Below, one piece after another: positions 50,052 through 60,166 of a stretch of 64,000 nucleotides of DNA. This stretch comes from an uncultured Bacilli bacterium (GTDB taxonomy: Bacteria > Bacillota_I > Bacilli_A > RF39 > UBA660): contig CAKOXO010000002.1 in assembly GCA_934130165.1 (NCBI GenBank), positions 192,412 to 256,411 of the forward strand, written 5' to 3'. Within the stretch, counting starts at the first letter, position 1, and every line of letters begins with the position of its first letter. Made by a program: the position numbers and the translations under genes. The notes under the pieces were generated by a model. That model was given only the letters and a program-made list of their open reading frames with translations, ran no database searches and was not told the origin of the DNA.

Positions 50052-50125
50052 GCGGATGTAGTTTAATGGTAGAACCTCAGCCTTCCAAGCTGACTACGGG
50101 AGTTCGATTCTCCTCATCCGCTCCA
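50052..50125 (+). tRNA. tRNA-Gly (anticodon UCC)
   Basis: Acceptor stem GCGGATG/CATCCGC. D-arm TAGTTTAATGGTAGAAC. Anticodon stem TCAGC/GCTGA with loop CTTCCAA (anticodon TCC). T-arm GGAGTTCGATTCTCC. Encoded CCA. Confidence 0.85.
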
Positions 50126-50137
50126 TTGAGGTTAATA

Positions 50138-50170
50138 CTCGCACACTTATATAGTGATTGCGAGTTTTTT
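50138..50170 (+). terminator. Rho-independent terminator after the tRNA
   Basis: Hairpin ctcgca-cacttatatagtgat-tgcgag followed by T6. Confidence 0.55.
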
Positions 50171-50217
50171 ATTTATATAAACAAGTTCATAGTATTTGAT
50201 ATTATGGGCTTTTTTCA

Positions 50218-50541
50218 TTGTTTAAAGGAGGTATGAATATTTTGAAAACGACCATAGAAAATTTAATATTTCCTTGTGAAATTAAAAATAAACTAAAAAT
50301 TAAAGGAAGTTTTGGAAATTTAGACATTAAATATATTGATGGACATTTAATAAAGTTCGACAACACCAATTTAAGCGTAACAGAACCACATAAGATTATT
50401 ATCAGTAATGAATCAATTTGTTTAATCTTAATTTCTTATGACGATGATAACAACTTATATTTAAAAGATAGTCATGAAATTATAACTCTAAGTAGATTGT
50501 CCAATCTAGTTTTAAAAATGCAAGAAATGAAAAACTTTTAA
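50218..50541 (+). CDS. Small hypothetical protein (element-borne)
   Basis: 107 aa ORF with an upstream purine-rich ggaggtatg start region. No motif recognised. Confidence 0.3.
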   Translation: MFKGGMNILKTTIENLIFPCEIKNKLKIKGSFGNLDIKYIDGHLIKFDNTNLSVTEPHKIIISNESICLILISYDDDNNLYLKDSHEIITLSRLSNLVLKMQEMKNF

Positions 50542-50609
50542 ATCTTATTTTTCCTTATTTTATAAGTAATTAAAAACCATTATGATATATTTTTTGAAAT
50601 GGATGTCCG

Positions 50610-50638
50610 TTGACTGTCCTGGCAAAATATGGTATTAT
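50610..50638 (+). promoter_or_regulatory. Sigma-A-type promoter upstream of the serine recombinase gene
   Basis: TTGACT (50610-50615), a 17-nt spacer, then TATTAT (50633-50638). Followed by an intrinsic-terminator-like hairpin at 50694-50721 (acacaag-ggaaattct-cttgtgt plus T6) before the RBS aaaggaga. Confidence 0.45.
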
Positions 50639-50758
50639 GATAATATACGAAGATTGTAAATAATCGTATATTTTAAGTATTTTGTAGTTCTTAACACAAG
50701 GGAAATTCTCTTGTGTTTTTTGTCGTTCAAAATTAAAAATTGAAAGGAGAAAAAAGCT

Positions 50759-57730: not shown

Positions 57731-58357
57731 CTATTTAACTTTTTTATTAATGTTTATTTCATTATCGTATATAGTCTTATACTCTTGAAGTTTTTTTATT
57801 GCCCTTGGTAATCCATAATTTGAAGCAAGTTCTAAATAGAATTTAGATTTTTCTAAATCTCTTTCAATACCGACTCCATTATAATAAAAATTTGCACCTA
57901 AATCATATATACCAGCCATATGACCTTTCATTGCACTATCATAGATTAGTTTAAAAGCAGTATTATTGTTTTTTTCTATATCTCCAAAGCCAAAATAATA
58001 GTATGCTCCTAAACAAAATATAGAAAATGCTTGTCTGTTTGGAATATTCTTTTCTTGTTCTATTAATTCTAATAGAGATTGATATGCTTTAACAAAAAGC
58101 TCATGTGCTTTATTTTTATCTTCTTTAACACCATCACCAAAGTAATAACAAGTCCCTACGCCATAAATACATCTAGGATCATCAAGTTCCTTTCCTTTAT
58201 TATACCAGTATAAAGCTTTTTCAAAATTTTGTTTAACACCATTTTCACCACTATCATAACTTCTACCTAATATATAACAAGATAATCCATCACCATTTTT
58301 TGCATTTTCTTCTAAATCAATTATATTAAAAATCATAGGGATAATTTTTTGTTCCAT
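57731..58357 (-). CDS. Sel1-like/TPR-type repeat protein (cargo operon gene 4)
   Basis: 208 aa with repeated A-x-x-W-Y-x-K-A / G-x-x-Y-Y-x-G units (ALYWYNKGKELDD, CYYFGDGVKEDKNKAHELFVKA, AYYYFGFGDIEKN). Confidence 0.5.
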   Translation of the reverse strand: MEQKIIPMIFNIIDLEENAKNGDGLSCYILGRSYDSGENGVKQNFEKALYWYNKGKELDDPRCIYGVGTCYYFGDGVKEDKNKAHELFVKAYQSLLELIEQEKNIPNRQAFSIFCLGAYYYFGFGDIEKNNNTAFKLIYDSAMKGHMAGIYDLGANFYYNGVGIERDLEKSKFYLELASNYGLPRAIKKLQEYKTIYDNEININKKVK

Positions 58358-58372
58358 ACTTAGACCTCCAAC

Positions 58373-58879
58373 TTACTTTATTAATCTCGTTAATATTGAA
58401 TATTTCCAATTTAATGTGGCTGCTTCACAACAATGCTCATACTTAATAATCATAGTTTTAATAAACTCATCATCAATTTTTTTATTATTAGTGATTAACT
58501 CTTTAATTTTTAAATATTCATTTCTAATAGCATTATCATTGAACATTGAACTATCGAGTTGTTTTTCTACTATTCTCAATATATCACTTGCTATTACTTT
58601 TCTTTTATTTTGATTATATATTTCAACATATTTATACATTGATAGAATTGCTAGATATTGATCTTTTTTTATATCATTTAATTGTTGTAATATACCATAT
58701 ATTAAAATTTGATAAAACGTATAAAAAATTGTCATTCTTTCAAGAAAATCTATAAAATTAACAATTTTTGAAAAACGATTAGTGAACATAGTAATAAAAA
58801 AAGAAATACCAATAACTTCCACCAAATATAAAAATATTTGGAAAATGGTTTTAGTAATTAAATAACGCTTTTTTATCAT
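58373..58879 (-). CDS. Membrane hypothetical protein (cargo operon gene 3)
   Basis: 168 aa with two N-terminal TM helices and a cytoplasmic helical C-terminal domain. Confidence 0.35.
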   Translation of the reverse strand: MIKKRYLITKTIFQIFLYLVEVIGISFFITMFTNRFSKIVNFIDFLERMTIFYTFYQILIYGILQQLNDIKKDQYLAILSMYKYVEIYNQNKRKVIASDILRIVEKQLDSSMFNDNAIRNEYLKIKELITNNKKIDDEFIKTMIIKYEHCCEAATLNWKYSILTRLIK

Positions 58880-58892
58880 ACTTTCACCTCAT

Positions 58893-59645
58893 CTATGTTC
58901 TACTCCAATATTCTAATTTTGCTAAAGATAATCCTATTCTATATGAAATCCCAAAATTATATGAAATACTTCGATTAAATATTTCAAGTATATTTTTCAA
59001 ATATATCTCTTGATACATAATTAAAATTTTATTTTCTTTTTCTGATATATTATGAAAATCTGAATAATGAAGATTATTTCTACATTTTCTATTAATTGAA
59101 TAAAATTTTTTATCTATATCTTTTTCATTTTGCTTAAAAACTTCTTCTAGCAAATTAATTGAAGAGTTAGACTTTTTATCATTCCAAAACATTTCTATTA
59201 TAATTGCTTTGGCTTTAGCAATAAATCTCTGAAAATCAAAATGGAATATTCCAATATCAAATGATATTTTTTCTTTTATAATATTATCAATAAATAAAAT
59301 TGTCTTAACTAAACCATATCGTTGAAGTATATATAATTTTTCTTCCTTATTAATCTTGCTTTTGCTAAACAATTTATATGTAGAATATGATTTTCTATTA
59401 ATATTTGTTTTGGAAATTCTTTCGACATACATATTAGATATATCTTTTAACTTTTCTTTTATAATGTCATATATATCCGGCATTAAAATTTCTATCCATC
59501 TTAACGGTGTCGCTACAATTCCATCTATCAATTCAAATTTTTCTTCTTTGCTATACTCCCAATTTCTAAAATTTATATCTAATAAATTTTTATTATTTAA
59601 ATATAGAACTACATCAAATATATAATTATCAAAATCTATTCCCAT
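58893..59645 (-). CDS. Hypothetical protein (cargo operon gene 2)
   Basis: 250 aa soluble protein with no robust motif. Contains RKCRNNLH (weak R-x-n-H resemblance only). Confidence 0.35.
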   Translation of the reverse strand: MGIDFDNYIFDVVLYLNNKNLLDINFRNWEYSKEEKFELIDGIVATPLRWIEILMPDIYDIIKEKLKDISNMYVERISKTNINRKSYSTYKLFSKSKINKEEKLYILQRYGLVKTILFIDNIIKEKISFDIGIFHFDFQRFIAKAKAIIIEMFWNDKKSNSSINLLEEVFKQNEKDIDKKFYSINRKCRNNLHYSDFHNISEKENKILIMYQEIYLKNILEIFNRSISYNFGISYRIGLSLAKLEYWSRT

Positions 59646-59728
59646 CTCATTTATTATTTCATTAGTAGTTAATGATGTATTTGATGGACAATATTTTAGA
59701 TTATGATTTCTAAAATCTTCAATTTCCT

Positions 59729-59938
59729 TTAAAGTGATTTTCTTTTTCCGCTTAAACCACCATATTTGGCTTTTATTGTTTCTTCAACAAAAATGGAAGA
59801 AAAAAATACTAAAAACGAACTTAAAACTTCTTTTTTTTCATAATCAGATATATTTTTTTTAATCTCTAATATATAACCAAGCCAAAAAGCATCATTTAAT
59901 ATTTCATTTACTATTTTTCTTTCTTTATCCTTGTCCAT
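59729..59938 (-). CDS. Small hypothetical protein (cargo operon gene 1)
   Basis: 69 aa ORF heading a closely spaced minus-strand series. Confidence 0.25.
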   Translation of the reverse strand: MDKDKERKIVNEILNDAFWLGYILEIKKNISDYEKKEVLSSFLVFFSSIFVEETIKAKYGGLSGKRKSL

Positions 59939-60166
59939 AACTTATTAGATTAATCCTCCCAAATAAAAAATATATCTAATAAAATTATACTATATTTTAG
60001 GCAAATTTACTATATAAGCATTGATTTATCGTAGAACTTATCATATAATTGATTTAACAAGTGAGGGATATTTTTTTGATAAAAGGTTTAAAACCTTCTT
60101 ATCAACTGCTCCATTGAGGAATCTGTTCGGAAAATCCGAACTTACATATATGAATCATTCGAAAGA

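Follow-up and report, generated by a model that had tools for sequence, protein, structure and literature searches.

Introduction

Integration at tRNA genes is treated as a hallmark of tyrosine integrases, and the literature in general states that no targeting of tRNA genes is known for serine integrases. The described systems closest to the element reported here are Tn4451/Tn4453, the ssrA islands of Dehalococcoides, and the integrative mobilizable elements (IMEs) that carry either a tyrosine or a serine integrase. Here we describe W, the element at positions 50120-60119 of a 64,000-nt stretch of DNA (the window) from an uncultured Bacilli bacterium (RF39; UBA660; GCA_934130165.1, CAKOXO010000002.1, 192,412-256,411, forward strand). 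W very probably entered at the 3' end of a tRNA-Gly gene by means of its large serine recombinase (LSR), and this recombinase belongs to a large, apparently undescribed clade of gut bacteria that inserts at the ends of many tRNA and tmRNA genes (together, t(m)RNA genes).

Tn4451/Tn4453 of C. perfringens and C. difficile are, like W, small Firmicutes elements with a single LSR (TnpX), a Mob_Pre protein of the MobV type (TnpZ), no pore genes and a short core (PMC5704250). TnpX has low target specificity and exchanges GA, whereas W is located at a tRNA end, GA is excluded as its exchanged dinucleotide, and its cargo is different. W was not placed in this family, given these insertions at t(m)RNA ends and the exclusion of GA, the weak and distant similarity of its LSR to the N-terminal domain of TnpX (4e-7), and the domain DUF4368, which was not detected in the LSR with Pfam and is typical of the TndX-like, multi-targeting LSR clade (PMC10083194). 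The Dehalococcoides ssrA islands, with the CcrB-like DsiB, are the nearest precedent for the choice of target and share with W a serine recombinase at a tRNA-like 3' end, a short repeat, an integration module beside attL and tandem arrays (PMC3146451). They have both DsiA and DsiB, other module genes, a 20-bp repeat and an insertion in the T-loop, use ssrA only and are found in one genus, whereas W has one LSR with a small open reading frame (ORF) and a MobV gene, its core is 8 bp, and its clade uses many tRNAs as well as tmRNA. With one recombinase gene and tRNA-Gly as its target, W was set apart from the Dehalococcoides type by description. IMEs with a tyrosine integrase, such as NBU1 and IME_Sag2603_tRNALys, also restore a tRNA 3' end and accrete in tandem, but they do so with an unrelated recombinase, long imperfect repeats instead of an 8-bp core, and one tRNA each instead of many (PMC5704250). 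The streptococcal IMEs with a serine integrase (rumA etc.) are likewise Firmicute elements with one serine integrase, very short repeats and often a relaxase of the MobV type (PMC5704250). However, these insert within protein-coding genes and disrupt them, whereas W leaves its target intact.

Serine integrases at t(m)RNA genes have appeared in surveys. The TIGER survey (2020) reported serine integrases at t(m)RNA genes in 14/297 islands; its authors called for experimental proof and argued that serine integrases are not subject to whatever attracts tyrosine integrases to tRNA genes (PMC7192596). Among tycheposons and related elements, LSRs were found in 27/937 (bioRxiv 2020.12.28.424599). Compared with the clade of W these are isolated cases, for which no clade, attachment-site anatomy or use of multiple tRNAs was described. 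The largest LSR survey covers protein-coding targets only and does not mention tRNA (PMC10083194), and a review of IMEs lists only tyrosine integrases at tRNA sites (PMC5704250). A clade of serine integrases located at 17 kinds of tRNA gene and at tmRNA would show that targeting of tRNA genes evolved independently in a second integrase family.

An integrative mobilizable element at the 3' end of tRNA-Gly

Within the window, which has a G+C content of about 24%, the 12-bp sequence GCTCCATTGAGG is found in two copies, both on the + strand, at 50120-50131 and 60108-60119. No third copy was found on either strand of the 64 kb with one mismatch allowed, and 0/100 dinucleotide-preserving shuffles had two or more matches to it (mean 0.04). 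The perfect repeat of the original prediction, said to occur nowhere else, was confirmed across the window in this way. The left copy had been described as covering the last six nucleotides of tRNA-Gly(UCC) and six nucleotides beyond, and this is correct, since ARAGORN and Rfam end the gene at 50125; the six tRNA nucleotides are GCTCCA, that is, two acceptor bases, the discriminator and CCA, followed by 6 nt of trailer. The weaker similarity reported on the 5' side of the repeats is real and modest (5/9 positions match between 50111-50119 and 60099-60107). The features at the two ends are the following.

50052-50125, + strand: tRNA-Gly(UCC) with encoded CCA (ARAGORN; Rfam RF00005, 69 bits)
50120-50131, + strand: left repeat copy, attL core, GCTCCATTGAGG, with the invariant part GCTCCATT at 50120-50127
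60108-60119, + strand: right repeat copy, attR core, GCTCCATTGAGG; L005, L006 and L011 diverge exactly at 60108

The tRNA-Gly gene is the left (B) arm of the attachment site. Its promoter was located at 49973-50000 by a promoter scan (TTGACA-16-TATAAT, 12/12 match).

The limits of W were determined by comparison with other contigs and loci, which are labelled here with L-numbers (L002, L016, L100 and so on). The original prediction had proposed a comparison with an empty tRNA-Gly site, and a metagenome scan with the predicted joined sequence found a W-free site in L016, from a related species with 79-90% identity in the flanks. In L016 the tRNA-Gly gene runs directly into GCTCCATTGAGGAATCTGTTCGGAAAATCCGAAC and, further on, a terminator, matching window 60096-60179 at 94% identity, with a single 12-mer; past the tRNA the match is to 60108-60179. 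Strains that share only one flank break at the repeat. L002 follows window 41795-50128 at 99.9% and continues in a different element, and L005, L006 and L011 follow the window from 64000 down to exactly 60108, where the end of another element begins. W was also found in other contexts. The exact 250-aa cargo protein is present on 22 other contigs, and on these the right end of W is identical, reading ...GGTTTAAAACCTTCTTATCAACT GCTCCATT (...CTTATCAACT before the core). The left homology of other copies of W, including those in L100, L104 and L106, stops at 50119/50120. Breakpoints matching the repeat were observed in L002, L005, L006, L011, L100 and L103-L109.

Five sequences were found after the right end of W and GCTCCATT: GAGGaatctgttcgg, GAAGtttctgttccaac, GGGAaatctgtccgaac, AAGTaaaatcgttgcac and TGAAatcaacttacgg. 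Beyond GCTCCATT the junctions read GAGGaatctg, GAAGtttctg, GGGAaatctg, AAGTaaaatc and TGAAatcaac. Because the right end of W meets five different sequences always after GCTCCATT, these 8 bp are taken as the obligatory shared core, and the repeat reaches 12 bp at this site because GAGG happens to come next in the target as well as in the left end of the element. The W-free site, the polymorphism among strains and the presence of the same element in other contexts indicate that W is a discrete unit. We therefore hold with good confidence that window 50120-60119 is a discrete IME at the 3' end of tRNA-Gly that entered through its own LSR, in agreement with the original prediction of an element of about 10 kb. 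The size of W is about 10.0 kb, or 8.65 kb without a nested insertion sequence (IS).

The gene content between the two copies is as had been described (an LSR, a MobV relaxase, an IS3 and cargo genes) and is supported by Pfam matches. The recombinase gene had been placed next to the left repeat; it is indeed at that end, with a conserved small ORF between it and the repeat. The genes for recombination and mobilization are listed here.

50242-50541, + strand: small ORF of 99 aa, conserved, starting with TTG, between attL and the LSR gene
50610-50717, + strand: recombinase leader, with a promoter-like TTGACT-17-TATTAT (50610-50638) and an 11-bp-stem hairpin with a T-run (50693-50717)
50759-52498, + strand: LSR, 579 aa, intact (Pfam Resolvase 1e-35, Recombinase 3e-18)
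55057-56292, + strand: MobV (Mob_Pre) relaxase, 411 aa, intact (PF01076, 8e-29, model positions 1-196 of 196)

The LSR has the catalytic motifs YPRVSTDGQ and DRLTRS, with R15, S17, D86, R87 and R90 invariant in the LSR alignment, and the zinc-ribbon cysteines C286, C289, C311 and C314 are conserved in the same alignment. A K/E/L-rich stretch at about residues 355-410 resembles a coiled coil, judged from sequence alone. The closest solved structure is the catalytic domain of TP901-1 integrase (7e-20). No close relative was found in annotated phage and plasmid records, where the best matches reach 27-34% identity over at most 69% of the protein; the best from phage records are streptococcal and staphylococcal phage integrases (27-31% identity). 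The hairpin of the leader is located 42 nt before the start codon of the LSR, and together with the promoter-like site it may be an attenuator or otherwise control the expression of the integrase. The small ORF, present in 63-68 of the 80 related LSR loci considered below, has no match in Pfam, PHROGs or PADLOC and is a candidate directionality factor or regulator. The relaxase has motif I HNER and motif III HMDEKVPHLH, as in the MOBV family, and is 88-90% identical in L020 and L021. Exact look-ups returned nothing for the Mob protein or for a 180-aa protein of the right flank. No family of a type IV secretion system (T4SS) or coupling protein was matched among the other 12 ORFs of W. With its own recombinase, discrete ends marked by attachment sites, an unoccupied site and a relaxase without pore genes, W would be a new member of the IME kind, for which excision and transfer are predicted.

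Several observations weigh against this reading. The W-free site stems from a related species, not from this strain. In L016, the 60-70 bp that follow the tRNA may be a scar or solo left end of an older element of the Y type (a second, distantly related type of element described below), and a truly naive attB for W is not among the sites seen; L016 is W-free. The predicted attP of W consists of the right end ...GGTTTAAAACCTTCTTATCAACT, GCTCCATT and the left end GAGGTTAATACTCGCACAC... (joined sequence CTTCTTATCAACTGCTCCATTGAGGTTAATACTCGCACAC); this junction had no match in viral contigs, and no circular form of W was found there. The predicted restored attB of the site, CTCCTCATCCGCTCCATTGAGGAATCTGTTCGG, was not found for W itself; the metagenome scan returned the related species of L016. 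The structure model of the small ORF is confident and has no recognisable fold or informative fold match. No origin of transfer (oriT) was identified by homology in W.

A clade of recombinases at tRNA and tmRNA genes

An LSR alignment scan with one genome per species found at least 519 relatives of the W recombinase, and the counts for the family given here refer to the best 80. The record titles of these are mainly uncultured Bacilli, Tenericutes, Clostridia and 'CAG' genomes, several of them from human, mouse, rabbit or ruminant gut. On the same strand and ending 400-1140 nt upstream of the LSR gene there is a tRNA gene in 56/80 (17 kinds) and a tmRNA gene in 7/80, for a total of 63/80. Most of the remaining loci show junctions of the form P arm-CCA-left end, i.e., tandem arrays, or have too little upstream DNA. 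A MobV gene follows downstream in 50/80 loci. The bases right after CCA track the LSR clade and not the tRNA. Clean repeats bound relatives of 5-9 kb that have ordinary terminators as right flank, such as those in L025 (CTGCTCCATTGA, 6583 bp) and L050 (21 nt, 6383 bp). The repeats in elements at tRNA-His (ATATTGAAATT) were set aside as chance AT-rich matches, and a second CTCCATTGA in L027 looks like chance.

Nearly identical recombinases were found at different genes, as in these pairs.

L091 (Thr-CGU) and L095 (tmRNA): LSR identity 99.4%
L057 (Arg-CCU) and L084 (tmRNA): LSR identity 97.5%
L078 (Thr-UGU) and L086 (Leu-UAG): LSR identity 97.4%
L055 (Leu-GAG) and L065 (tmRNA): LSR identity 97.3%
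L088 (Thr-GGU) and L089 (Gly-UCC): LSR identity 96.7%
L047 (Met) and L048 (Tyr): LSR identity 95.7%

There are 27 LSR pairs with at least 90% identity, and 19 of the 27 are located at different t(m)RNA genes. All 19 of these share the last five nucleotides of the target (N72-N73-CCA; CACCA or CTCCA), compared to 36% of the LSR pairs that are 30-60% identical (background about 40%). The sharing of discriminator and CCA should be read as a strong trend in the sequences compared, the pairs being non-independent and no formal probability being attached. Because near-identical LSRs at different t(m)RNAs share these five nucleotides, the target appears to be a class of genes, with the discriminator as part of the region that must match. 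One locus, L086, has two occupied tRNA genes within 18 kb, a tRNA-Thr(GGU) at 641-714 (minus strand) with a left end of the W clade and a tRNA-Leu(UAG) at 9366-9449 with a Y-type element, which indicates that several tRNA genes of a genome can be occupied at once.

Position of the crossover and a model of the attachment sites

The original prediction pointed to the central GA of the repeat (...TTGAGG); as crossover dinucleotide, this GA is excluded by the junctions GCTCCATT|TGAA and GCTCCATT|AAGT. The sole strict identity requirement of serine integrases such as those of Bxb1, phiC31 and A118 is the 2-bp crossover. In W the exchanged dinucleotide would include the discriminator, i.e., C72-N73, which in the window is C72-U73, the CT at 50121-50122 and 60109-60110. 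An inner dyad symmetry centred on C72-N73, TCAACTG|CT|CCATTGA, scores 7/13. Dyad symmetry over 26 nt was dismissed as a locator of the crossover because it is inconsistent between elements.

In 13 independent P arms a motif that contains GTT and is often palindromic starts 25 nt before CCA; it is GGTTTAAAACC in W, and other examples are AGTTCGTAACC, AGTTCGAAAT and GTTGTAGATAAC. In the tRNA the T-loop GTTCGA starts 21 nt before CCA. In the model of the A118 integrase from Rutherford et al. 2013, the zinc-ribbon subsite is said to be shifted outward in attP by about 5 bp relative to attB. The 4-bp outward shift fits the A118 pattern and points to the T-arm as the attB subsite of the zinc ribbon. 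We tentatively propose, with a confidence that falls a little short of even, that the LSRs of the clade recognise the generic architecture of the t(m)RNA 3' end (T-arm, acceptor strand, discriminator and CCA), that attP carries a motif resembling the T-arm shifted 4 bp outward, and that the 2-bp core including the discriminator mainly sets the choice of target. This model has to be weighed against the CA of CCA, which has an equal dyad symmetry (7/13), the junctions confining the crossover to GCTCCATT only; against the P arm of L050, which copies the tRNA 3' end without the 4-nt shift; and against other types of P arm that have no GTT.

Near-identical enzymes at genes that share discriminator and CCA make this a concrete and testable model of the attachment sites. 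If it is true, one enzyme could use many tRNA genes, and two base changes in attP could retarget it. In general, serine integrases are independent of host factors and unidirectional. The enzymes of this clade might have practical value, and nearly every bacterium would offer them a target.

Ends, cargo and mobilization region of W

The order of the backbone, as determined by comparison with L020, L021 and L022 (LSR 78% and Mob 88-90% identical to those of W), is left end, small ORF-LSR, cargo slot 1, orf63-mob, cargo slot 2 and right end. Both cargo slots are variable among these relatives, and slot 2 is on the reverse strand. The two ends are as follows.

50132-50215, + strand: left end (P' arm), TTAATACTCGCACAC, a terminator hairpin and the conserved block AAGTTCATAGTATTTGATATTATGGGC
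59979-60107, + strand: conserved right end (P arm), about 130 bp, 82% identical to the right end of L020

The hairpin of the P' arm (CTCGCA...TGCGAG and a T-run, 50139-50170) takes the place of the tRNA terminator, and the block AAGTTCATAGTATTTGATATTATGGGC has a TG-extended -10 in the promoter scan (50178-50205). Among relatives whose LSRs are 50-78% identical, this W-type left end was also found after the CCA of Gly, Leu, Thr, His and tmRNA genes. The P arm has an outward-facing promoter-like TTGATT-17-TATAAT at 60021-60049, both hexamers of which are conserved in L020; in a circular W, transcription from it would cross attP and proceed to the small ORF and the LSR gene. The P arm terminates in ...TATCAACT. 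Two hairpins had been noted on the sides of the right repeat as possible recombinase binding elements, and both are present. One, the palindrome AAGGTTTAAAACCTT at 60083-60097 (hairpin aaggttTAAAacctt), is within the conserved right end and is kept in L020, but the other, at 60125-60141, is outside the element, in the target flank.

Between the ends, in addition to the genes listed above, W includes the following features.

52502-53461, + strand: cargo slot 1, queuosine-salvage protein (DUF2419 / Q_salvage; Pfam 2.5e-44)
53470-53480, + strand: left half of a split hairpin, including one copy of the AAA target duplication (53478-53480)
53481-54823, - strand: IS3-family insertion, 1343 bp (Pfam HTH_28 and rve; inverted repeats; 3-bp AAA duplication)
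54824-54840, + strand: right half of the split hairpin (second AAA copy, TGTGTTC, T-run)
54863-55054, + strand: orf63, with homologues at 9 related loci, in each case ahead of the mobilization region
56383-59938, - strand: cargo slot 2, reverse operon (Pfam; block 97-100% identical on 22 other contigs)
56383-57168, - strand: HD-domain protein (Pfam)
57190-57714, - strand: GNAT acetyltransferase (Pfam)
57731-58357, - strand: Sel1-repeat protein (Pfam)
58373-58879, 58893-59645 and 59729-59938, - strand: three proteins of unknown family (168 aa, 250 aa and 69 aa)

The pairing of LSR and Q_salvage recurs in L022 (gene at L022:3103-4029), and other copies of W have genes for 212-aa and 231-aa proteins in slot 1 in place of Q_salvage. 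Queuosine salvage is a function in tRNA modification, and in two related elements with tRNA genes as targets its gene comes directly after that of the LSR. Such salvage genes may be of importance to the hosts, which appear to have small genomes. The cargo of slot 2 had no informative match in PHROGs or PADLOC, and the idea of a defence system was dropped because the PADLOC matches were only marginal. Elements of this family are abundant in uncultured small-genome gut Bacilli, where they pile up in tandem and carry restriction-modification systems, queuosine salvage and unknown genes as cargo.

The IS, a single copy in the window, has the features of the IS3 family: orfA (54377-54739) and orfB (53520-54329) on the minus strand with an A7G slippery site for frameshifting inside orfA, TG...CA inverted repeats (TGAACTAGTCAAG... 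and ...CACTTCA, at 53481-53514 and 54790-54823), a target duplication and empty sites. In the copies that lack it (L020, L100, L103-L106) homology resumes exactly at 54824. The IS interrupts the loop of a hairpin, GAACACA-GAAA-TGTGTTC with T7 after it (GAACACAGAAATGTGTTC), that is conserved and is intact in the IS-less L100 and L103-L106 and in L030, the LSR of which is only 55% identical. Whatever gene precedes it, this hairpin is always just upstream of orf63-mob. It may be either a terminator that insulates the mobilization genes or a candidate oriT. In MobV systems the oriT, found just upstream of mob, has inverted repeats and, a few bases beyond them on the downstream side, a GpT nick, and the W hairpin resembles the oriT of pMV158 by layout only (PMC5863519). 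The product of orf63, which has no Pfam or PHROG match, is possibly an accessory protein of the relaxosome.

From this anatomy, W would have entered by LSR-mediated recombination between its attP and the 3' end of tRNA-Gly(UCC), with the exchange inside GCTCCATT. Integration would leave the tRNA intact, a new terminator being supplied by the element. Excision would be the recombination of attL with attR, possibly helped by the product of the small ORF, and the excised circle would be nicked by its own MobV relaxase and carried through the conjugation pore of another element. If the hairpin is the oriT, the insertion of the IS in its loop implies that this copy of W is no longer mobilizable. 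This leads to the most durable of the alternatives, although we consider it unlikely: that W is a fixed relic, integrated once and now immobile because the IS3 split a hairpin that served as oriT or in regulation and a directionality factor is lacking. The loop that received the IS belongs to a hairpin conserved upstream of orf63-mob in all IS-less copies, L101 bears the same IS-carrying copy, no circular junction was found in viral contigs, and the small ORF has no recognisable function. However, the LSR, the relaxase and both ends are intact, and the IS-less copies, which are 97-98% identical and occur across many human gut samples in no fewer than five junction contexts, indicate that the lineage was mobile recently. 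Moreover, the hairpin is possibly only a terminator, and excision or integration need not suffer from an IS located between modules.

The right-hand neighbour and the limits of the mobile unit

To the right of W the window has the flank of the target and the remains of another element.

60120-60190, + strand: target flank (B'), AATCTGTTCGGAAAATCCGAAC and the terminator hairpin AATCATTC-GAAA-GAATGATT with a T-run
60167-60648, + strand: remnant of a second, Y-type element, of which 60167-60409 is the 3' part of a MobV gene and 60430-60648 a truncated piece of yhcG (PDDEXK nuclease)

The target flank is homologous to the left ends of Y-type elements, which read AATCTGTTCG...CGAAC and then have a terminator hairpin. 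These left ends are located after the CCA of many tRNAs and are followed by a small ORF, an LSR 33-41% identical to that of W, and a MobV gene. The tRNA genes at the same loci that do not adjoin such elements have ordinary terminators without the motif of the Y left end. Most likely, then, 60120-60190 is the retained left end of an older Y-type element. The yhcG fragment covers only positions 88-152 of 157 of the YhcG_C model. In L007 (13169-13735) and L008 the mob frame extends upstream into a longer gene that has the motif GKSDVFTKESL in common with the Mob of L017, and because of this continuation the strains are seen to differ in the decay of the second element. We conclude that W entered beside the tRNA where a Y-type element, since stripped of its middle, already resided, and that the element in L005, L006 and L011 did likewise. 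The target used was probably the tRNA joined to the left end of this older, related element and not a naive trailer, which would be tandem accretion; the decayed remains of the older element (truncated mob and yhcG) occupy 60120-60648 and may extend further right. Against this, the right end of the decayed neighbour was not found, as no tRNA-like core was detected in 60200-64000 or in the 9.5 kb beyond. A hairpin with a T-run at 62644-62672 (ATCATTC-ATAA-GAATGAT) resembles the terminator hairpin at 60153-60177 and has no core sequence alongside; it might be the decayed right end of the neighbour remnant.

With such a neighbour, the mobile unit could be the whole composite island from 50120 to about 62.7 kb, the 12-mer at 60108 being internal. 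W and 60 bp of the flank are found together in L101 and L108, and the excision of tandem elements as a composite is known in other IMEs (PMC5704250). Nevertheless, there is no third core copy or P arm to the right, in the window or in the 9.5 kb beyond, the right end of W is joined to five different sequences, and other strains have a different element to the left of 60108 with the same right flank, all of which makes the composite very improbable. Even less probable is that the repeat is a coincidence in a variable island built by homologous recombination, in which the recombinase gene is a passenger. The 12-mer is short, and the copies of W are mosaic, their left halves being about 92% and their right halves about 98% identical. 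Nonetheless, the shuffles gave no second copy (0/100), six independent comparisons break within the 12-mer, the junctions contradict it, and 63/80 related LSR genes are equally placed relative to a t(m)RNA gene. The least credible proposal, a prophage remnant or phage satellite with a phage-type serine integrase, draws on the TP901-1-like catalytic domain and the streptococcal and staphylococcal phage integrases (27-31%) as best annotated matches of the LSR, but it is dismissed because W has a MobV relaxase, as do 50/80 relatives, has no capsid, terminase, portal, lysis or replication genes among its ORFs, and gave one weak PHROG match of unknown function.

Tandem arrays and probable accretion at the tRNA-Gly site

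The reading of W as an IME that entered next to an older Y-type element makes the tRNA-Gly site a likely hotspot of tandem accretion. An array is found in L100 (ERR1190654, human gut, 20.7 kb), where at least three elements of the family are separated by GCTCCATTGArr: one W-like, one of the Y type (640-aa LSR, 465-aa Mob) and a third with a truncated 389-aa LSR. No tRNA is present within this 20.7-kb stretch. Judged by its sequence, L100 is an intact version of the arrangement of W beside Y. In L018 (11223-11251) the 20 nt before a Y left end match the 3' end of tRNA-Gly exactly, but no tRNA is present; this P-O-P' junction belongs either to a circle, as its attP, or to the interior of an array. 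L018 was not accepted as a circular form, the contig having no terminal overlap and being possibly a tandem array. A Y-type element at the same tRNA-Gly, L017:5985-9346, carries as cargo a FokI-like type IIS restriction enzyme and two DNA methyltransferases.

The IS-bearing W is also present, 99.6-100% identical, in L101 and L102 (ERZ27287232 and ERZ27287243) with a different right neighbourhood, which consists of another decayed mob fragment followed by leucine-rich repeat (LRR), Mur ligase and Ddl genes and a tRNA-Lys. In ERZ27287232, contig L110 has the left end of W at the VTT/tRNA-Gly locus, and in ERZ27287243 this locus (L002) has a Y-type left end. The contexts of L101/L102 as compared with L110/L002 reflect either different strains or a second location of W.

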